A DNA stretch of 64,000 nucleotides, from the NCBI GenBank assembly GCA_965219345.1, contig OZ244732.1, positions 1,728,001 through 1,792,000 of the forward strand, written 5' to 3'. The DNA comes from Nitrosopumilus sp. GTDB lineage: Archaea; Thermoproteota; Nitrososphaeria; Nitrososphaerales; Nitrosopumilaceae. Positions 887 through 17,861 of this stretch are shown in pieces. Numbering within the stretch: the first letter of the stretch is position 1; every line of letters begins with the position of its first letter. Below the pieces are notes generated by a model. That model was not told the DNA's origin, did not search any database, and saw only the letters and a program-made list of their open reading frames with translations. Made by a program: the position numbers and the translations under genes.

Positions 887-1069
887 TCACAGAGTGTTTT
901 CCAAATCTTCTTTTGTTGTCTTTTTATCCTTGTCTGTGATTTTAATTGAGCCCTTTGGCTCAATCATGTAGGCCAGTGGATTTTCGTCACAATCATACAA
1001 TTCCAAAACATCTGAATCTTTGGACTCCATGTATTTTATATGGTTATTCTCCGTTAAATTGGTTTTCAT
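887..1069 (-). CDS. small acidic hypothetical protein
   Basis: 60-aa ORF; removing the 1074-4317 insertion makes its ATG overlap (ATGA) the stop of the 4318-5235 gene. Confidence 0.5.
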   Translation of the reverse strand: MKTNLTENNHIKYMESKDSDVLELYDCDENPLAYMIEPKGSIKITDKDKKTTKEDLENTL

Positions 1070-1154
1070 ATCAGGTTCTGCTAACTTGTCGAGACCCGGA
1101 ATGTGGATCTTCTCTGAAATGTTATGAGAATCAATGCCTAATGAGAGATATGAT

Positions 1155-1370
1155 TCAGACAGGCCAATTCAAGACATATTCGCTTATGTCTATGTCATTT
1201 TGCCTGCCGCATTTCAGGCGGTCTTTTTGGTCGTCAACATAGAGATCAACAGTGTTTTTTCCCTTGTTTTCTAGTATGAACTTGCGTAGAAAAGACGAGG
1301 GGATAATGTATGGCTTGGTTCTTTGTAGCAGGAGATACAGTTCATCATTTCCAGATTCGAACATTCTCAT
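1155..1370 (-). pseudogene. 3' remnant of a gene downstream of the methyltransferase (possibly the cognate restriction endonuclease)
   Basis: 71-aa ORF just past an 80-bp mini-element with no target duplication; identity inferred from position only. Confidence 0.3.
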
Positions 1371-1399
1371 AAGATCGTCACGTGCCGTTATCTACCATC

Positions 1400-1479
1400 G
1401 GTACTGTTAACTTTTGAGGATCCGAGATGCCAAATTGAGCGTGTCATCTGGCAAAAGACTCTCTATTGTTAACAGTACC
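1400..1479. mobile_element. 80-bp MITE-like element with IS6-type ends
   Basis: Perfect 12-bp inverted repeat GGTACTGTTAAC (1400-1411) / GTTAACAGTACC (1468-1479). Confidence 0.65.
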
Positions 1480-2269
1480 GCACCTGCTGCACAGAACTGA
1501 CTCTTTTTCTAGCTATCTTGGCATACTGGGATGACACATCGCATCCGATAAATTCTCTGCCGTGTATAGCAGCCATCTTGCATGTGGTTCCGGAACCACA
1601 CATGGGATCAAACACAAAATCTCCTTTATTACTCCATGACAAAATATGATCCTCTGCAAGTTTTTCTGGAAAAATGGCTGGATGCTCAAATGCATACCTG
1701 TCGTTTGTCGTTCCACTAACCCTACAGCATACTCCCAGATGTTGGTCTTTGTCTTGTATTCATTGAGCTTGGCCTTGACCTTGCGGTTTACTGCATCTGG
1801 CCCCTTGTTGTATACCACGCCTTCCACGCCATTCCTAACAGTTTTTTCCGTTAACGGGTTGAATGTCACCGGCTTTCCCTTTGCCAGAATAAACATGAAC
1901 TCGTAGCAGTTTGTGTATGCGTTGCTCCGCATGAACGGCGTGTTCTTCTTGCGGTAGATCATCACGTCGTGTATGGTGAACCCTATCTGTTTGAAATAAA
2001 GTGCCTGATCAAAGCTGGTGAGGCTACGACCGCCGTTAATCCTGTCGCCTACAACCCATATTACGATCCCCCCGAGTCACTTCATAGAGTGACTTGGCGG
2101 TATTCTCAAAATCAAAAACATAGCCTTCATAGTTTCTGAGATTGTCATACGGTGGAGATGTTACAGTAAGGTCAACAGAACCGGGCTTGATTCTGTCTCG
2201 CATGAACTTTACGCAGTCGGCAGTGTATATTTTGTTTTTTTCTGCATACTTAGTTTTTATGCGATTCAT
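1469..2269 (-). pseudogene. beta-class N4-cytosine/N6-adenine DNA methyltransferase, frameshifted
   Basis: VDLTVTSPPY (motif IV), then HPAIFPEKL and FDPMCGSGTT (motif I) in a different frame; frameshifts near 2070 and 1716; stop supplied by the MITE end. Confidence 0.85.
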
Positions 2270-2439
2270 TCCTTCTCGCCTGCGGTTACGAGTATCTTGT
2301 TCTTGGTTATAGTAAATTTCAGAGCAGAGGGCATCCCAAGTTTTTCTACTACTGGTTTTGGGATCTTGCAGCCATGCGTTCCGGCGGTGGGATTCAGCGA
2401 AACCACAAATTCTGTTGCGTCCTGTTTCCATTTTGGCAT
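2266..2439 (-). CDS. AbrB/SpoVT-like swapped-hairpin DNA-binding protein (57 aa, not in the ORF track)
   Basis: MPKWKQDATEFVVSLNPTAGTHGCKIPKPVVEKLGMPSALKFTITKNKILVTAGEKE; IPKxVxExLG pattern; stop overlaps the methyltransferase ATG (ATGA). Confidence 0.65.
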   Translation of the reverse strand: MPKWKQDATEFVVSLNPTAGTHGCKIPKPVVEKLGMPSALKFTITKNKILVTAGEKE

Positions 2440-2478
2440 TAGTGGGGATAGTAAACAGCCGTTAAATAAGTATTACTG

Positions 2479-2520
2479 TATCAGTCTGATAATAGAAAGC
2501 ATTATATTATCAGACTGATA
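2479..2520. promoter_or_regulatory. twin palindromic operator flanking a BRE/TATA-like promoter
   Basis: TATCAGTCTGATAATA-N10-TATTATCAGACTGATA is a perfect 16-bp inverted repeat; each arm contains the palindrome TATCAGWCTGATA; GAAAGC+ATTATAT lies about 28 bp upstream of the tRNA. Confidence 0.7.
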
Positions 2521-2532
2521 TAGTATATGTAT

Positions 2533-2618
2533 GGCAGGATTGCTTAGCAAGGTTAAAGCGACAGATTCAGAATCTGTGTCTCTCGCCGAGATCGTGGGTT
2601 CAAGTCCCACTCCTGCCG
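2533..2618 (+). tRNA. type II tRNA with anticodon CAG (nominally Leu), atypical identity elements
   Basis: Acceptor GGCAGGA/TCCTGCC; D-arm GCT..GG..AGC; anticodon stem ACAGA/TCTGT with loop TTCAGAA (CAG at 2568-2570); long variable arm; T-arm GTGGG-TTCAAGT-CCCAC; discriminator G. Confidence 0.85.
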
Positions 2619-2667
2619 CACATGTCATTTCTTTTCATTCTATATTAATTTTCGAGGGGAATTACGC

Positions 2668-3789
2668 ATGAATCCCAGACAACAGCGTGCAAAGACCATG
2701 ATGGAAACACAAGGCTACTGCTCCCAAATCAACCACGATTCCTTCAAGGTACGTTCCCAGACAAACCCAGAGAATCACTATATCGTATCAAAAACAGACA
2801 ACGGCCTTGTCTGTGAGTGTCCAGACCACGAGACACGAAACGCAGACTGCAAGCACATCAAGATTGTGCTGGATGTTATCAGGCGTAATGGCTGTTATCG
2901 TAACAACACTTTCCGCATCATGGAACGTGCCAAGCTGAGACTCTGCAAGTATTGCGATTCAGGCAACATCACCAAAAAGGGAACCAGAAAGACCAAGAAA
3001 GGTGATGTCCAGATATTCAAGTGCAAGGACTGCACGAGAAGATTTACAGCAAACTTTGGATTCAAGAAGATACGGTTTGATGAGAATGTGATTACCGGAG
3101 CCATGCAAATGTATTATTCGGGAATGTCTACCCGTGACATCGCAAACCACTACGAAATGATGGGAATTGACGTGTCCGATGTTGCAGTTTTCAAGTGGAT
3201 TGACAAGTATTCCAAAATGACAGCAAAGTACCTTAATGGAATCGTACCCAGAGTCGGCGGCTGGTTCCGTGCAGATGAGGTATGGGTGAAGATCAACGGG
3301 AAGCAATGCTATCTTTTTGCAAACATGGACGATGATACGAGATATTGGTTGGCTTCCGACCTAGCAGACAACAAGTTCCAGCACAATGCCAACAATCTAT
3401 TGAGAATGACAAAACAGCAGTCCGGCAAGTCACCACGAAACTTCATCACTGACGGGCTTCCGGCCTATGCCAAATCATCAAAGAGGGTGTTTGGCAAGAA
3501 AACCAACCACGTAAAGCACATCCACCTGGCAGGCAAAAGAGACAAGGACAACAATAACAAAATGGAGAGGTTGAACGGTGAGATTAGAGACCGTGAGAAG
3601 GTGTTTCGTGGTCTAAAGAAGATGGACACCGGAATACTTGACGGAATGCGAGTCTATTACAACTACACGAAAAAACACGGTGCATTGAAGGGTCAGACTC
3701 CGGCAGAGGCTTCAATGATTGAGGTTGATGGCATAAACAAATGGAAAACCATCATTCAGAATGCAAGTCTGAGTAAGGACTCTGAATAG
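2668..3789 (+). CDS. IS6-like DDE transposase with N-terminal SWIM finger and zinc ribbon
   Basis: CECPDH..CKH (SWIM), CKYC..CKDC ribbon, HTH GMSTRDIA, catalytic ADE / TDGLPAY / NNKMERLNG, YNY..KHGAL..TPAE. Confidence 0.9.
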   Translation: MNPRQQRAKTMMETQGYCSQINHDSFKVRSQTNPENHYIVSKTDNGLVCECPDHETRNADCKHIKIVLDVIRRNGCYRNNTFRIMERAKLRLCKYCDSGNITKKGTRKTKKGDVQIFKCKDCTRRFTANFGFKKIRFDENVITGAMQMYYSGMSTRDIANHYEMMGIDVSDVAVFKWIDKYSKMTAKYLNGIVPRVGGWFRADEVWVKINGKQCYLFANMDDDTRYWLASDLADNKFQHNANNLLRMTKQQSGKSPRNFITDGLPAYAKSSKRVFGKKTNHVKHIHLAGKRDKDNNNKMERLNGEIRDREKVFRGLKKMDTGILDGMRVYYNYTKKHGALKGQTPAEASMIEVDGINKWKTIIQNASLSKDSE

Positions 3790-3861
3790 GCATAGTGTAA
3801 TATACAGTACCATACAGTATCATATTTTTCTTTTGCAATGGTTTTTTAACAGGTTGATGCA

Positions 3862-4257
3862 GTGTTATGTCATGAAAATACAGACGGTAAAAAAAGGATT
3901 TGGGAGACGCCAAGAAGGCGAAGATGTGATTGTATGCACGTATCCAAATGCCGACATTGCCGTGAAGGCGCTTTTGAAATCACTGGAAGATTGACATACA
4001 AGATATCACTCTCCCGCCTTTACAAAGAACAGATAGCACATATCAAAGAATTTGATACCATATTGAACTCAAGAAAAGTAGCACAAAATATCAAGAAAAC
4101 CGTCAAGGATTTGGAAAAAATGCAAAGATCAAGAATTGATATTGAGACTACTAGGATCAGGTCTCAGGTTGAAGGCACTTCCTATGTCGTTGTCTACAAA
4201 GTACAAAACAGCCCCAATCAAAAGCTAATTGCAAAAAGAATCATCAAGTGTAAATAA
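3862..4257 (+). CDS. transposon passenger, possible RelE/ParE-fold protein
   Basis: YKISLS-helix-helix-..RSQVEGTSYVVVYKV..IAKRII matches the RelE/ParE layout by eye; start uncertain. Confidence 0.4.
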   Translation: MLCHENTDGKKRIWETPRRRRCDCMHVSKCRHCREGAFEITGRLTYKISLSRLYKEQIAHIKEFDTILNSRKVAQNIKKTVKDLEKMQRSRIDIETTRIRSQVEGTSYVVVYKVQNSPNQKLIAKRIIKCK

Positions 4258-4317
4258 AACTAATGCCTCTATTCCAGAGAAGATTCACATTCCTGGTCTC
4301 GACAAGTTAGCAGAACC

Positions 4318-5235
4318 TCATATCAGAATCAAGATTCCCATTACAACTGGTATCAGATATCTTATTACATAACGAGCGCGTATGGATTGGTTGCTGGTCA
4401 GCTGGGGTAGCAACAATGATCCGCCTATGATAAACAATCCCATCTCTATCTGTTTGGCAAATATGCCTGTATCAGGAGGATTGCCCAGGTATATTCCATA
4501 TTTGAATATTAGAATAAGCGATGATATTACAATGAGTGTGTAAAGACCAAACTTTGTAGGGGCGGCAGAGGTGGAAGCAGGCTTGAACGAATATGAAATT
4601 TCAAAACTATTTTCGTGGCCGGATGTTATTCTAAACAAAGTAGAGTTGTATGTTTTGAATTTCTGTACATAACTTGGCTGTTGATGACTCTGCTCTACTT
4701 CATTGCCTTCAATTGTGCCATATTTTGTTTGTGCAAAATCAAATTCATTGGGTGTAAATAAAGTGCAATACAAAGGATAGGGCTGCTTTTTTATTGTCAT
4801 TTTCAAAACAGATTTTGAGTGTTTTGTGTGATGTGGGGAATAATTCAAGGTAAATGTTCGAATCTCGTTTTTATTCAATGCTTTGTTTTTTGGGATTTTA
4901 ATCCATATCATGTGTAATTTCTCCAAATCTATCTTCGAATGTAGTGTTTCCAGCTTTTCTCGTATCTCTCCAGAATCTGTGTTAATGAAATGTAAAATTA
5001 ATTTTTTAGCATCTTTTGTTGCCATTACTGGCAAAATAGAACCTTCCTCATCTTGAACTAGTAGGTTTGGCAAGAAATCATCTGATAAAATGATGATGTT
5101 TGTCAGTTTCGCTCTCTTTGATCTTATCGTGTATTCGTTTGTTACACTTCTCTGTTCTTTATGTTAGTGTGAAATAAACAGCCTCTGCCGCAAGATTTCT
5201 ATCATGGAATCTACTTGCATCTCAAAGTAATCCAT
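4318..5235 (-). pseudogene. membrane-anchored hypothetical protein with an in-frame stop
   Basis: ATG at 5235 is in frame with ORF 4318-5073, with a single TAA at 5164-5166; three C-terminal hydrophobic helices. Confidence 0.55.
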
Positions 5236-5406
5236 ATGCAGATCATTTTATTCCCACGGTTTAGAGAAAATATGATTCTCGCTCAAAAATGTTGAGCTAT
5301 GGAAAGGCGATCATTGGGGTCAATAGATCGCTCAAATTTTGAAGAACATTTTGAATGAAATGACGAAATGTTGAAAATCTTAAGGCATTGCTTGTAAATT
5401 CAAATC

Positions 5407-6894
5407 TTGAATCTGTACAAATCAGCAGATTATGTCACAAAAATCGGCGAGAATAGCCTTGATTTTTATGCAGACGAGAGGTGGCAGAAGGTCAAGAAAG
5501 CTGTAGCAGGGCACTCGTTTTTCCACTGGGACCTGGAGTTTCCTGACATATTTTACGATGAAGATGGGAAGCGAAAGAAGAATCCTGGGTTTGACGGGGT
5601 TGTTGGGAATCCTCCTTATGTTAGACAAGAAACATTGAAAGCTAAAGCACAGATGTAATTGCCACAAAATTCTAATTTGAGAATATCTAAAAATTTTATA
5701 ATTAATAGTAAATCAGATTTGAGTTGTTATTTCCATGGTCATAGATTACATCTATTAAAAAATAAAAAAATCCTTGGATTTATTTCTAATGATTCTTGGT
5801 TACATATGAGATATGGCAAAAATATTCGTCTGTTGTTTTTAGATAATACTAGCGTATTAGAAATAATTAAACCAACTTATAATATTTTTAAAGATGCAGA
5901 TACACCAACTGCAATATTATTACTTCAAAAACAACAAACAGAAGATCATACTGTATTATTTAAAACTGTGAATAAGGAGGGCTTTGAGAGTGGTAAATTT
6001 ACTATTATTGCAAAACCACAAAAGGAGATACTAACTGATAATTGGAATAATTATTTTTCAAATACAGAATTTATACCAAAAATTAAGATGGTAAACATGT
6101 TTGATGTTGGAATTATCAAGGGAGGTCAGAAAACAGGATGTAATGATTTTTTTGTCTTAACTAAAGATATGATTAAAAAATATGAAATTGCCGAAGAGTA
6201 TAGAAAATCCATAATATCAAATGATATTCATGAAGGATTATTGACAGACTATGTTGTTTCTGAATATCTACTTGATGTTAATGATTCAAAAGGAGAATTA
6301 GTAAGAAGTAAAAATGGGAAAAAAGTCTTAAAATATATAGAATATGGTGAGGAAACAGAAATTATTCCTCAAAAAGGTAAAAATGTCAAACCTTGTTTAA
6401 TTTCAGAATTATCAAGTGTTACGAATCGCAATATGTGGTATTCTCTTGGATTGCAAAATCCCCCATCTATATTTCTTAGTCAAATTATAGATAAACGATT
6501 GAAAGTGTATGAGAATAATGATGAATTTTACTCATTAGATGTTTTCGCTTATTTTACACCAAATAATAAAAATCACATACATGCATTCTTAGCTTATCTT
6601 GCATCATCCTGGTTTTTACTATACATGGAACAAAACGGTCACTCTATGGGAGGAGGTGCCTTGAAATTTCAAATTTATGACTACAAAAATTCTCCTGTTC
6701 CAGATTTTAATGAAATGGGGGAGAAAAATATTCATCGAATGGAGATGGCATGGTTATTTTATAGAGAAAATTTTAATAGAAAAAAACTGGATAATATTGT
6801 ATTTCCGATATTAGGATTTAATGAAAATGAAAAAAATATTATTTTGGATAAATTAGAATCTAAAACTAATTCTAGAAAGAACAGGAAAAATTAA
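5407..6894 (+). pseudogene. type IIG/Eco57I-like adenine methyltransferase, C-terminal part (motif IV + TRD), 5'-truncated with an internal stop
   Basis: FFHWDLEFP..GFDGVVGNPPYVRQE, in-frame TAA at 5656-5658, then DL..YF, GFISNDSWL, IFKDA, GQKTGCNDFF, MGGGALK. Confidence 0.8.
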
Positions 6895-6929
6895 TACACA
6901 TAAAAAAATACTATATTGCTGAAGAATTA

Positions 6930-8453
6930 ATGATTAAATGGGAATCCATGCCTACAAATTCGAAACAAGCTTTAGAGATGGAAGCCAAAACATACAAGTA
7001 TCCTACTCACATAACACTGATTCAAGAAATTATTGCAAATGCACAAGATGCGTTTAGAGAATACAATACACAAGATCCTACAATAAATATCTCTTTTCAG
7101 AAGCATAAAAACAAGAAATTTATTATATTTCACAATAACTCAAAACCTATTCCGGAAAGTTTTTTTAAAAAGAAATATTCAACTCTTTATCAATCTTCCA
7201 AGAATATTGGCGAAGCAATAGGATTTGTTGGTATTGGTGCCAAAATCTTTCTTCCATCACATAAAGATGCAGAAATAATTACAATAACAGGGAATATAAA
7301 GAAAATTGCATCCAAGTGGATATGTACTAACAAGGGACCACAATACATCACAAGCCTACAAAATTCTCTTTCGGATGTAGTAGACATGAATGAATTTTAT
7401 CATAAAAATGGAACTACGTTTATTTGTAGATTATCAGATGAACAGTATTTAGAATTAACATCAAAGATAAGCAAGATCATACATTTTTGGTGGAATCCTG
7501 CATTGATTGCAAACTTGTTTACTATTAAAATACATAGAAAGATAATAACATCTGAATTTCCAAGTAAAATAAAACAATCCATCAAATCATTTTCTATACG
7601 TGGAGAGAAACTAAACTGTAATTTTTTCATATCTGATGATGAATTAGATGATGATTATCAAAATATTATATACACAGTACATGGAAAAAGAATTGAAAAT
7701 GACAAATTAGAAACTGCATTGACAGTAAAAGAAAATTATGGAAAAAGAATTTTTTGTTATGTTGATGTATCAATGTTGGCAAAATATGTTCTTAAAAGCA
7801 AAGAAGGATTTGAAAAACACAAATATGTCACAAATATAAAAAATAAAATTCATCAAAGATTTTGGGATTTTGTTAAAGAAAAAGAACTATACAAAGATCG
7901 AACAAAAACTATTACTAAAAATGTGGAATTAGAAACTCTTGTGGATAAACTAAACCTGATGTTACAAAACCAAAAATTCAAAGATCTAAACCCATTTCTT
8001 ACAAAAAAACTACGTAAGACAATCATTCCTACAAATGGCGGAGATGAACCAATTACGGAGGTCGAAGGCACTCAACAAACAGATGAATCAGGAAATGGGG
8101 ACGATCCTAGTACCGCATATGGGGATAATGCTGGAATTGGTTTCGTATCAGATGATAAAGGAAAAAAATTAGGAGAAAGAAAAATGAAGCAGACTCGTGG
8201 GCTCAGTATAAGTGAGATTGAGCATGATGAAACAGAAAAAATGGAGGCGTATGTAAGTGAAAGCGATAATGCAGTAATAATAAACACAGGTCATCCATTT
8301 TATAAAAAGATCGAAGGTAGACTTATGAGTGAATATCACAAATACAAAATTGTGATAGAGGCATTAGTTCGATATAAGGCCGAATCCGAAGGATGGAATA
8401 CAGATATGTCTCTAGATAAAGCCCGAGATCTCTTACATTCAACATATGATTGA
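6930..8453 (+). CDS. GHKL (MORC/Hsp90-like) ATPase
   Basis: N-box LIQEIIANAQDA, G2 IGFVGIGAK, G3 NGTT; G1 box degenerate (HNNSKPI); C-terminal INTGHPFY. Confidence 0.75.
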   Translation: MIKWESMPTNSKQALEMEAKTYKYPTHITLIQEIIANAQDAFREYNTQDPTINISFQKHKNKKFIIFHNNSKPIPESFFKKKYSTLYQSSKNIGEAIGFVGIGAKIFLPSHKDAEIITITGNIKKIASKWICTNKGPQYITSLQNSLSDVVDMNEFYHKNGTTFICRLSDEQYLELTSKISKIIHFWWNPALIANLFTIKIHRKIITSEFPSKIKQSIKSFSIRGEKLNCNFFISDDELDDDYQNIIYTVHGKRIENDKLETALTVKENYGKRIFCYVDVSMLAKYVLKSKEGFEKHKYVTNIKNKIHQRFWDFVKEKELYKDRTKTITKNVELETLVDKLNLMLQNQKFKDLNPFLTKKLRKTIIPTNGGDEPITEVEGTQQTDESGNGDDPSTAYGDNAGIGFVSDDKGKKLGERKMKQTRGLSISEIEHDETEKMEAYVSESDNAVIINTGHPFYKKIEGRLMSEYHKYKIVIEALVRYKAESEGWNTDMSLDKARDLLHSTYD

Positions 8454-9039
8454 CATGAAAAAGATACCTGTTAGAATAATTAAGGTAACTTCGCCTAGTG
8501 GCGATACAAAGATTGGCATAATGTTAGATTCTAATCATTATTTTACAATGAAAGAAGATACGAGAACTACTATTAAAAATCTTGAAAAGGAATACTTTGA
8601 AGTAGTAAGAAAAGCAGAGAAATTATTTTACAAAGATGGCAACAAAAGTAAGCGTCAGAATTTACCAAGTACAATATTCTGGCAATTAGGCAATATGTTA
8701 CGTAGATTTTATAATAAAGCATCTCACAAATTTTTTATTACTAATTACGCTAGTGCGTTACAACGTGATTTTGGACTTACAGAACCTTATCTAAGAGAGA
8801 TAATCATATTTTCAAAAGAATTCAGTCTAAAAGATATTTCAGACGATATTTCAATGGCAGTATACCGAGCTCTTGTATGGAAAAGAAACCAGCTTGATAA
8901 TTTGGGGTTACTTGAGCAAGAAAAGCAGAAATTAATCAAACGTGGCACGACAAAGGAGTTCATTGGACGTGAGAATTACAAAAGAGAGTTAAAGGAATTA
9001 ATCGCACAGCGTTTACAAAGTAAAAATCCATCAAAGTAA
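8446..9039 (+). CDS. hypothetical protein resembling the DUF1016/YhcG N-terminal domain
   Basis: FWQLGNML..LQRDFGLT..YLREIIIFSKEF..ISMAVYRALV pattern; overlaps the ATPase stop. Confidence 0.45.
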   Translation: MIDMKKIPVRIIKVTSPSGDTKIGIMLDSNHYFTMKEDTRTTIKNLEKEYFEVVRKAEKLFYKDGNKSKRQNLPSTIFWQLGNMLRRFYNKASHKFFITNYASALQRDFGLTEPYLREIIIFSKEFSLKDISDDISMAVYRALVWKRNQLDNLGLLEQEKQKLIKRGTTKEFIGRENYKRELKELIAQRLQSKNPSK

Positions 9040-9048
9040 TATCTAATC

Positions 9049-17779: not shown

Positions 17780-17861
17780 CGCCGGGAAAGGGATTCGAGC
17801 CCCTGCACGCTTGCGCGTAGCCGTTTTCGAGACGGCCGCCTTACCACTTGGCTACCCCGGC
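17780..17861 (-). tRNA. tRNA-Ser(CGA)
   Basis: GCCGGGG acceptor, stem GCCGT/ACGGC with loop CTCGAAA, variable arm ACGC-GCAA-GCGT, G73. Confidence 0.93.

Follow-up and report, generated by a model that had tools for sequence, protein, structure and literature searches.

A stretch of 64,000 nucleotides from the genome of Nitrosopumilus sp. (assembly GCA_965219345.1, contig OZ244732.1, positions 1,728,001 to 1,792,000), hereafter the window, contains at 2533-2618 a real and structurally selected class-II tRNA-like gene that is a built-in module of an IS6-like transposon. The gene ends 49 nt upstream of the transposase gene and is traversed by a short open reading frame (ORF), the start codon of which overlaps tRNA position 1 and the stop codon of which overlaps the transposase start, and this phasing is conserved in related elements. 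The tRNA-like belongs to a family with serine-type identity marks and varying anticodons, and in sister elements a module with C/D-box features can take the same slot. It is tentatively proposed that such RNA modules may gate the synthesis of the transposase, by a competition between their folding and processing on one side and coupled translation on the other.

A complete class-II cloverleaf

ARAGORN calls a tRNA-Leu(CAG) gene at 2533-2619 on the forward strand, one of the two tRNA genes found in the window, and the Rfam model RF00005 matches 2533-2618 over its full length (model positions 1-71 of 71) with 57.5 bits (E 8.5e-10), the gathering threshold being 29 bits; homologs score 49-59 bits against the same model. 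As read from the sequence and the alignment, the acceptor stem has 7 bp including G1-C72 and G2-C71, the D stem 4 bp, the anticodon stem 5 bp including a G30-C40 pair, and the T stem 5 bp, and the anticodon loop UUCAGAA presents U33, the anticodon CAG and A37. The variable arm comprises 16 nt with a 4-bp stem; its length and unpaired bases are intermediate between those of the Leu and Ser arms of the host, and its orientation is uncertain. The discriminator is G73, followed by CAC, and CCA is not encoded. U8, A14, G18G19 and U33 are all found, together with a T loop UUCAAGU that fits UUCRANY, and T8, A14, one D-loop G and T-loop bases form invariant columns over 23 aligned sequences. In the centroid fold of RNA 2531-2700 the acceptor, anticodon, variable and T arms are formed and the 3' spacer is open. 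The initial annotation of this DNA, made from the sequence alone, had described an intact 7/5 cloverleaf with CAG, a long variable arm, G73 and the two terminal G-C pairs, which agrees with the calls of both programs. It had also proposed that the 5' leader and the 3' trailer extend the acceptor helix by about 8 bp; such an extension can be drawn for the window copy with G-U pairs and one mismatch, but is impossible in the second copy of the genome and in the homolog from another genome, and was rejected because it is not conserved.

The cloverleaf pairing is kept across the family. In the alignment of 23 sequences, six of which are host tRNAs, 97.5% of 480 pair cells are standard and 19 of 21 pairs have changed on both sides, G30-C40 being G-C in 17 of the 23 (columns 33/43). 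For the eight copies situated upstream of a transposase gene, 98.2% of 168 pair cells are standard, the three unpaired cells representing one row misaligned by MAFFT, and 14 of the 21 pairs have changed on both sides; the 7-bp acceptor stem and the 5-bp T stem are 100% paired in these copies. This pairing level was reached by none of 500 shuffles, and slid controls did not come close. The cloverleaf fold is, on this comparative evidence, under selection. Such pairing, with compensatory changes over diverged lineages, is difficult to reconcile with a relic, that is, a captured host class-II tRNA that drifts within a multiplying transposon and whose frame and ATG are accidents of GC-rich, stop-poor sequence, although several members are visibly decaying (o903, o334, G145/L258 and the 5'-truncated L002), as expected of a hitchhiker.

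Serine-type identity marks under a leucine anticodon

The tRNA-like carries three marks of the Ser identity set, namely G73, a long variable arm and G30-C40. It has a leucine anticodon, but lacks the A73 of tRNA-Leu, and it is not akin to the host Leu isoacceptors, from which it differs in D-loop length and variable-arm sequence. Archaeal leucyl-tRNA synthetase (LeuRS) has been reported to read the D loop and the variable arm. According to a review of tRNA identity, G73 and then G30-C40 are strong determinants for bacterial-type and archaeal seryl-tRNA synthetase (SerRS), A73 is a key LeuRS determinant, and G73 is an antideterminant for Haloferax LeuRS, the change from A73 to G73 turning Leu identity into Ser (PMC9976931). 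By these known identity rules a released RNA would be a substrate for SerRS, not for LeuRS.

The host has its own tRNA-Leu(CAG) (contig C1 491459-491543), with A73 and A37, and all four host tRNA-Leu genes aligned or listed have A73. The host tRNA-Ser at window 17780-17861 (reverse strand) has G73, as the initial annotation had stated. The A37 of the tRNA-like, which had been counted there as a mark against Leu, proved not to be diagnostic: the host tRNA-Leu(CAG) shares it, and a 98%-identical homolog has G37. The host tRNA-Leu isoacceptors are mutually 79-88% identical, and the tRNA-like shares 50-57% identity with them, and 49-57% with the aligned host tRNAs for Leu and Ser taken together, these pairwise identities being a rough stand-in for isotype-specific tRNA models.

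A second copy of the tRNA-like (C1 1220106-1191) differs by one T-loop base, and its transposase is 78% identical at the protein level. In a sample of one genome per species plus the genome of the window, close homologs were found in three of 150 other genomes of the genus. The homolog in G158 is 98% identical, with CAG, G73 and G37, and has lost the transposase; the homolog in G149 (locus L240) is 95% identical, with CAG and G73, and its pair 2-71 has changed from G-C to A-U, which is compensatory; the homolog in G145 is decayed and 82% identical. CAG and G73 are thus kept in 4/4 intact close copies from three genomes, and A73, which had been named as the sign of a private mutation, was not seen in these copies; G73 is not a private mutation of the window copy. 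It also occurs in 16 of 17 aligned long-arm family members, so that the Ser-type, non-Leu identity set is a family trait, and this retention of G73 is a further point against a drifting relic. An anticodon-masked 23-nt pattern scan returned 89 metagenome and 53 genome loci, mostly bacterial class-II tRNAs sharing the anticodon stem among the ranked matches, of which L240 is the sole locus with the transposon leader box. At L240/L257 (G149), the stretch 3' of the tRNA-like encodes about eight codons like the usual transposase start and then a different protein; the N-terminus of this ORF presumably resembles an IS1595-type transposase, and an insertion or a fusion is possible.

Among the close copies the tRNA body is 95-99% identical, the 60 nt upstream 56-67%, the spacer 65-94% and the next 300 nt 49-72%. 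A relic would not account for a body at this level beside flanks at 49-67%. An ordinary accessory tRNA-Leu(CAG), supplying a codon that is used more by a higher-GC transposon, would agree with the anticodon and with a GC content of 43-50% in the transposon region versus about 34-36% for the genome (1.91 Mb, 36% GC). It is, however, hardly credible, given G73 in all close copies, where A73 is the key determinant of LeuRS, the A73-bearing tRNA-Leu(CAG) that the host already has, a CUG usage that is not enriched in the transposase (10.7 per 1000 codons vs 8.6 in long ORFs of the genome), and the unrelated anticodons of relatives in the same slot.

A family with varying anticodons

ARAGORN, applied to related loci and to the whole genome, identified further long-arm tRNA-likes of 81-89 nt that are tied to the transposon family. 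They make up about 11 of the 52 ARAGORN tRNA calls in the genome, labelled Ile, Arg or Leu, and the sole tRNA-Arg(CCU) calls of the genome are two of them; genes for Leu(UAA), Glu(UUC) and Trp were not called by ARAGORN in the host genome, probably because the program misses intron-containing genes. In the upstream slot the anticodon is UAU in L022 and L027, GAA in L045 and GAU in a decayed copy (o951, C1 951659-951747), and in L002/L087, a 5'-truncated relative of the window copy in the same slot, the loop reads GAA. A downstream type is situated past the transposase stop but before the right end of the element, on either strand, and its members have UAA, ACG, AUC, UUC, UAU, UCU or CCU. The anticodon is constant within the CAG lineage and variable across the family. 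Intact tRNA-likes without a transposase gene are found in the G158 copy and o951. Two ARAGORN calls with a four-base "anticodon" (C1 787949-788026, tcgt, and 1438222-1438294, tccg) are 23-150 nt away from 3' fragments belonging to the transposase family.

The trans-acting reading of this family is that of a missense tRNA, which would be matured, receive CCA, be charged with Ser by the single SerRS of the host and insert Ser at CUG, with relatives inserting Ser at AUA, UUY, AUY, AGG and other codons, and which would represent an archaeal 7/5 counterpart of bacterial allo-tRNAs. The genome encodes one standard SerRS with an N-terminal arm domain, and a Ser-charged CUG reader is chemically plausible in that G73, G30-C40 and the long variable arm fit the SerRS identity rules (as given in the sections of PMC9976931 cited above). 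The motif Y32-U33-NNN-R37-A38, present in 17/17 aligned members, is that expected of a decoding loop, the identity among copies is confined to the mature body, intact copies outlast the transposase, and CAG is kept in every intact close copy. On the other hand, the anticodons differ by lineage and hit common sense codons, which would be harmful if the tRNAs were efficiently charged and used, and recognition by host enzymes has to be assumed for an RNA with 49-57% identity to host Leu and Ser tRNAs. A missense tRNA would also leave unexplained the frame running from ATG to ATGA and the C/D-like replacement in the same slot (see below), and of the bacterial allo-tRNA-UAU group most members are, by the conclusion of the authors who described it, probably not used in translation (PMC5389517). 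Taken as the function of the module, missense decoding is rather unlikely, though it deserves more weight than the codon-supply explanation.

Ahead of every downstream-type tRNA-like, at about -65 to -30, stand a hairpin and then a T-run. The hairpin loop is complementary to the variable arm of the same tRNA-like over 8-13 nt in 6/11 cases, a match found in at most 6 of 1000 shuffled flanks; among the other five, two reach 7 nt, one reaches 8 nt closer in, and two (L024, L067) are same-sense copies. The hairpin and arm words differ between copies, and the two sites therefore co-vary. No complementary partner beyond 7 nt was found for the variable arm of the window copy, and the other leader-type copies likewise lack a partner. 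The complementarity in the downstream-type relatives, seemingly built for RNA-RNA or RNA-DNA pairing, would suit a non-decoding binding RNA, namely one that regulates by base pairing, or one that serves as a decoy to nucleases directed at tRNA or to other tRNA-binding proteins, as would a tRNA shape that is kept while the anticodon varies and a conflict-related cargo of DNA methyltransferases and larger restriction-like ORFs. For the window copy such a role is improbable, as neither it nor the other leader-type copies have a partner, no anticodon nuclease was found (no search being aimed at one), and the phased upstream frame would find no explanation.

An open frame phased onto the transposase start

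The region P1 upstream of the tRNA-like (Table 1) is a predicted promoter or operator, judged by its spacing, since its TATA-like word starts 30 nt before A2531; the layout recurs in other copies, where the repeat words are different. The upstream ORF begins with an ATG, the G of which is tRNA position 1, and ends with a TGA that overlaps the transposase ATG (ATGA). The conserved box TTCTATATTAATTTTCGAGG of the spacer contains a TATA-like word and a Shine-Dalgarno-like word, GAGG, recurs in many diverged copies, and is a candidate second promoter or ribosome-binding region.

An ATG at -2 to +1 is found in seven of the eight leader-type tRNA-likes, with GTG in the eighth, and by eye in about 8 of the 43 other ARAGORN-called tRNA genes of the genome. 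The frame has 46 codons in the window copy, the second copy, the G149 copy and L045, 43 codons in L022, and 44 codons in the decayed 951-kb copy, where the stop is in the same place and the transposase ATG is mutated to ATA. In L027 the variable arm is one base longer, and the frame terminates in a TGA immediately 5' of a GTG start. The combined length of tRNA-like and spacer varies by lineage (135, 126 and 135 nt), and the phase is kept.

The frame is not confined to elements with a tRNA-like. Among 22 elements with an RNA leader of either type, 18 have a promoter-adjacent ATG at -104 to -191 that opens a frame of 40-50 codons through the RNA module; this frame ends in ATGA and is open over 120-300 nt, while the remaining two frames are usually closed after 9-21 nt. 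The four elements that depart from the rule are L027, L087 (which is truncated) and two copies that have become pseudogenes. Within the stretch from -125 to -36, which excludes the shared box TTCTATATTAATTTTCGAGG, the ATGA-ending frame is stop-free in 16/20 leaders and the other frames in 2/20 each, the shuffle expectation of a stop-free frame being on average 0.15 and about 0.28 for the tRNA types. In the C/D-type leaders the other frames carry 2-8 stops. For a relic, the chance of about 0.28 that a tRNA-type leader has one stop-free frame and the ATG at -2 in host tRNA genes would be favorable, but the ATGA phasing is kept at differing lengths and also occurs in the stop-rich C/D-type leaders, so that, together with the pairing, the body-confined identity and the retention of G73, a drifting hitchhiker can be given little credence.

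Exchangeable RNA modules in the transposase leader

Leader classes were assigned by eye for 39 full-length related loci. In 18 of them the leader is a promoter with element-specific repeats and the transposase ATG follows directly, about 30 nt past the TATA-like word; four have a tRNA-like, 11 a module with C/D-box features, and six something else. The clearest C/D-like modules, in L029 and in the genome copies near 1.035, 0.212 and 1.717 Mb (c1035, c212, c1717), have a 6-bp terminal stem, the boxes RTGATGA, CTGA, TGATGA and CTGA, and spacers of 11-12 nt. The C box of c1717 is a variant, other C/D-like copies have longer spacers, and a strict C/D box pattern matches L029 only among the 39 loci. 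Two of the modules give full-length, sub-threshold Rfam matches, to sR1 (26.2 bits, E 0.0057) and sR14 (22.7 bits, E 0.034). Of six C/D-like guides, four lack a perfect 12-mer match at any other place in the genome, in which the rRNA genes were not located (a 16S motif search was empty), so that an rRNA target is conceivable; both c212 guides have perfect 12-mer matches elsewhere, at unannotated sites.

The box TTCTATATTAATTTTCGAGG before the ATG is common to all tRNA-type and C/D-type leaders. The promoters of L240 (tRNA-type) and L051 (no RNA) align up to the ATG, after which one continues with the tRNA-like and the other with transposase codons. A transposase tree, built without 16 rows whose ORFs are broken, shows the leader types intermingled, and the tRNA label needs at least three changes on it. 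Near-identical transposases have different leaders in two cases, L022 (tRNA-type) with L023 (none) and L035 (none) with L036 (C/D-type), and the left part including the RNA module has therefore been exchanged as a unit.

A possible translational gate

The gene, the cloverleaf, the location inside the transposon, the family and the conserved, phased frame are directly established, and from them we infer a transcription start, a translation of the frame, a processing and a regulatory outcome as follows. Transcription from P1 would start at the A two bases before tRNA position 1, because the TATA spacing matches that of the sister elements that look leaderless, and the transcript would begin with an AUG, the G of which is G1. 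A ribosome would load on this 5'-terminal AUG, read the 46-codon frame through the unfolded tRNA-like and the spacer, terminate at AUGA and re-initiate on the transposase AUG, this being the only way in which the transposase would be made. In a transcript that folds before it is read, the cloverleaf would be trimmed by host tRNA enzymes, RNase P taking off the AU of the AUG and RNase Z cleaving behind G73, such that the tRNA-like would be released and the transposase ORF would lose its coupled translation. The module would keep transposase synthesis low and tied to the tRNA-processing and translation state of the host. A C/D-like module in the same frame would act as an equivalent gate via assembly of an L7Ae-type or kink-turn (K-turn)-binding protein, so that ribosomes would compete with the machinery for tRNA processing or small nucleolar ribonucleoprotein assembly for the same nascent RNA.

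This gate model accounts for the slot, for the two interchangeable types of stable RNA, for the ATG and for the phased open frame. The initial annotation, the interpretation of which is partly supported, had offered a missense tRNA, an uncharged decoy for anticodon nucleases and a structural leader as possible functions; the structural leader is favored, in the more specific form given here, by the varying anticodon, the C/D-like RNA in the same slot and the frame ending on the transposase start, and recoding of CUG to Ser has been made less likely. That folding and processing of the tRNA-like compete with coupled translation and so gate the synthesis of the transposase is held as a tentative reading that falls slightly short of an even call. 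The wider proposition, in which Nitrosopumilaceae IS6-like transposons would use complete stable-RNA genes of host type, tRNA-like or C/D-box small RNA (sRNA), as dual-coded translational gates, and the released tRNA-likes would, as a by-product, supply missense tRNAs that could be charged with Ser and that transposition would disperse, is possible but rather doubtful.

Several points weigh against the gate. The TATA-like word in TTCTATATTAATTTTCGAGG and the ATG are spaced as P1 and the ATG are in the leaderless copies, and should the box itself act as a second promoter, the transposase could be made independently of the upstream frame. The T-rich run of the spacer (2626-2639) could terminate transcription. 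The body-confined identity and the intact tRNA-likes without a transposase would suit selection on an RNA that acts in trans no less well than a role in cis alone, and G73, G30-C40 and the canonical anticodon loop are left unexplained by a structural gate. Downstream-type members, some of which are on the opposite strand, cannot work through an upstream frame. The -2 ATG is found in roughly a fifth of host tRNA genes as well, and since the copies are related, the counts overstate independence, with about four independent tRNA-type and several C/D-type lineages behind them.

If true, the gate would let a mobile element adjust its activity in a novel manner, in which the most plentiful RNA-recognition systems of the cell, RNase P and RNase Z or L7Ae-type proteins, would be borrowed as a switch and one sequence would serve both as an RNA gene and as a coding frame. 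Ammonia-oxidising archaea harbor, and pass on, tRNA-shaped genes that combine Ser identity marks with arbitrary anticodons, whereby misreading of the code by tRNAs from mobile elements becomes testable in archaea. Automatic annotation of these genes as tRNA-Leu, -Ile, -Arg and so on inflates and distorts the tRNA sets of Nitrosopumilaceae.

The transposon and its surroundings

The transposon has 3,244 bp and is delimited by terminal inverted repeats and an 8-bp target duplication. It begins with GGTTCTGC... at 1074 and ends with ...GCAGAACC at 4317, and the same 8-mer, TCATATCA, stands directly outside both ends; from the inverted repeats and the flanking identical 8-mers it follows that the element spans 1074-4317. 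A 62-nt inverted repeat pairs 1059-1120 with 4271-4332 at 89% complementarity, and the end motif closes several other genomic copies. The transposon-borne position claimed by the initial annotation is thereby upheld, the tRNA-like lying inside the inverted repeats and the direct repeat, ahead of an IS240-type transposase. The TACTGTAT words near the transposase were considered as terminal repeats and rejected, as they are promoter-side repeats and the true ends lie 1.4 kb further out.

The N-terminus of the transposase has, by eye, a zinc-finger-like motif, CxC...CxH. The methyltransferase gene of the element is broken, with an SPPYDN motif readable in the ORF at 2036-2431, and intact methyltransferase-like ORFs occupy the equivalent place in other copies. 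The 57-aa ORF that diverges from the tRNA-like is a candidate regulator, and its start, M-x-[KR]-W-K-[KQ]-D..., can be read on the opposite strand upstream of c1220, c1717, L240 and o951. An "AbrB-like" label for this ORF was an impression only and was dropped, Pfam giving no match.

The host genome has many full and partial transposase paralogs, and 78 related loci were found in Nitrosopumilaceae genomes. Other copies in the genome measure 2.8-4.6 kb, with intact methyltransferase-like or larger cargo ORFs, and their target repeats are perfect over 8 bp at c1009 and c1848, 7 bp long at c1035, and absent at c1220. A miniature element of 636 bp (C1 905045-905680) has the same inverted repeats at its ends, but neither a transposase nor a target duplication.

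Around the window copy, a weaker inverted match between 897-927 and 4088-4118 (71%) joins the left outside flank (window 887-1069) to the ORF inside the right end (4088-4257), and may go back to an earlier insertion or duplication. From the left edge of the window, positions 1-639 hold the 3' part of an rve-type integrase/transposase ORF (PF00665, E 1.4e-14), a stretch of 49.5% GC compared with about 34% for most of the window. Directly to the right of the transposon, window 5400-9040 has a very low GC content of 27-34% and ORFs of 411, 507 and 197 aa, the first of which is preceded by a fragment with an NPPY-like methyltransferase motif; this region may be a defence or restriction island.

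Table 1. Transposon features in the window and RNA modules of sister copies; positions refer to the window unless a contig (C1) or locus is given
Feature	Position	Strand	Basis
Left target-site duplication, 8 bp, TCATATCA	1066-1073		identical 8-mer at 4318-4325
Left terminal inverted repeat, starts GGTTCTGCTAAC...	1074-~1120	+	repeat search; end motif recurs in other copies
Cargo ORF, 71 aa	1155-1370	-	ORF list; no Pfam match at E<=1
N6/N4 DNA methyltransferase remnants, three broken ORFs	1469-2431	-	PF01555 N6_N4_Mtase, E 2.4e-13, on ORF 1469-1642
Small ORF, 57 aa, divergent from the tRNA-like, start M-x-[KR]-W-K-[KQ]-D...	2266-2439	-	ORF list
Promoter region P1, TATA-like ATTATATTA (2501-2509) between repeats TATCAGTCTGATA and TATCAGACTGATA	2479-2520	+	sequence, repeat search
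Upstream ORF, 46 codons, ATG 2531-2533, stop TGA 2669-2671	2531-2671	+	predicted from sequence
Class-II tRNA-like gene, anticodon CAG, G73, G30-C40, long variable arm	2533-2618	+	ARAGORN, Rfam, alignment
Spacer, T-rich run 2626-2639, then conserved box TTCTATATTAATTTTCGAGG 2638-2657	2619-2667	+	sequence, copy comparison
Transposase, 373 aa, DDE_Tnp_IS240 domain	2668-3789	+	PF13610, E 1.6e-14, 54.6 bits vs cut-off 27
Cargo ORF, 131 aa from GTG	3862-4257	+	ORF list; no Pfam match at E<=0.01
Right terminal inverted repeat, ends ...GTTAGCAGAACC	~4271-4317	+	repeat search; motif at paired ends elsewhere
Right target-site duplication, 8 bp, TCATATCA	4318-4325		directly outside right inverted repeat
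C/D-like modules	C1 ~1035430-1035490, 212640-212700, 1717020-1717085; L029 1393-1451, L038 1396-1451, others		
Hairpin/variable-arm loci	L038 2644-2800, L072 2642-2800, L075 2484-2640		
Hairpin/variable-arm loci, contig C1	903870-904018, 334010-334162, 1235350-1235498, 1718320-1718455, 1038870-1039023		

Comparison with known systems

In the E. coli thrS operator, in T-box leaders and in repression by L7Ae at K-turns, a tRNA-shaped or K-turn leader RNA bound by a host protein decides on the translation of what lies downstream. These gates are untranslated leaders of host genes, whereas in the transposons a complete tRNA-like or C/D-like RNA lies inside a translated-looking frame of the transposase. 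Archaeal C/D-box sRNAs can be co-transcribed with other genes or embedded in them. The modules of the sister elements resemble such sRNAs in having a terminal stem and C, D', C' and D boxes, with 12-nt spacers in the best cases, but differ from them in a box spacing that keeps one frame open. In the literature, no report was found that places a tRNA-like or a C/D-box RNA in the leader of a transposase from Thaumarchaeota or the IS6 family; "tRNA-like" and "SWIM" occur 0 times in the main text of Krupovic et al. (2019; PMC6563490), the supplementary insertion-sequence tables of which, outside that search, may catalogue the family.

With the IS6 family, as characterised in the relevant sections of its review, the transposon shares a DDE transposase of the IS240/IS6 type, an 8-bp target duplication and short ends beginning with GG, and some members of that family have an extra zinc finger, comparable to the zinc-finger-like motif of the transposase described here (Varani et al., 2021, Mobile DNA 12:11, PMC7986276). 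IS6 elements are described there as 0.7-0.9 kb long with a single gene, one named member having a passenger gene. The element of the window, at 3,244 bp with cargo and an RNA module, does not conform to this simple layout, and the present elements as a group differ in their size of 2.8-4.6 kb, their methyltransferase- or restriction-like cargo, the small divergent ORF, conserved ends of about 40-60 nt and the RNA module in the transposase leader.

Two groups of odd tRNAs can be set beside the tRNA-like itself, the bacterial allo-tRNAs being the closest known. The nematode nev-tRNAs are likewise long-variable-arm tRNAs with an anticodon mismatched to their identity class, but they are eukaryotic chromosomal genes reported as leucine-type, and the parts of the report that bear on them mention no placement in a transposase leader (PMC3333845). 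The allo-tRNAs, as defined in the sections relevant here, are bacterial tRNAs with Ser identity marks and 8/4 or 9/3 acceptor/T stems (Mukai et al., 2017, Nucleic Acids Res 45:2776, PMC5389517). They share with the tRNA-likes the long variable arm and G73 combined with a non-Ser anticodon, UAU being recurrent, as well as a location near transposon-related genes and the decay of some copies, whereas the tRNA-like is archaeal and has the canonical 7/5 architecture in place of 8/4 or 9/3 stems; the same sections of that account mention neither a transposase-coupled reading frame nor a C/D-box replacement (PMC5389517). The feature is an archaeal variant of the theme of odd tRNAs on mobile elements, in an unexpected dual-coded arrangement.

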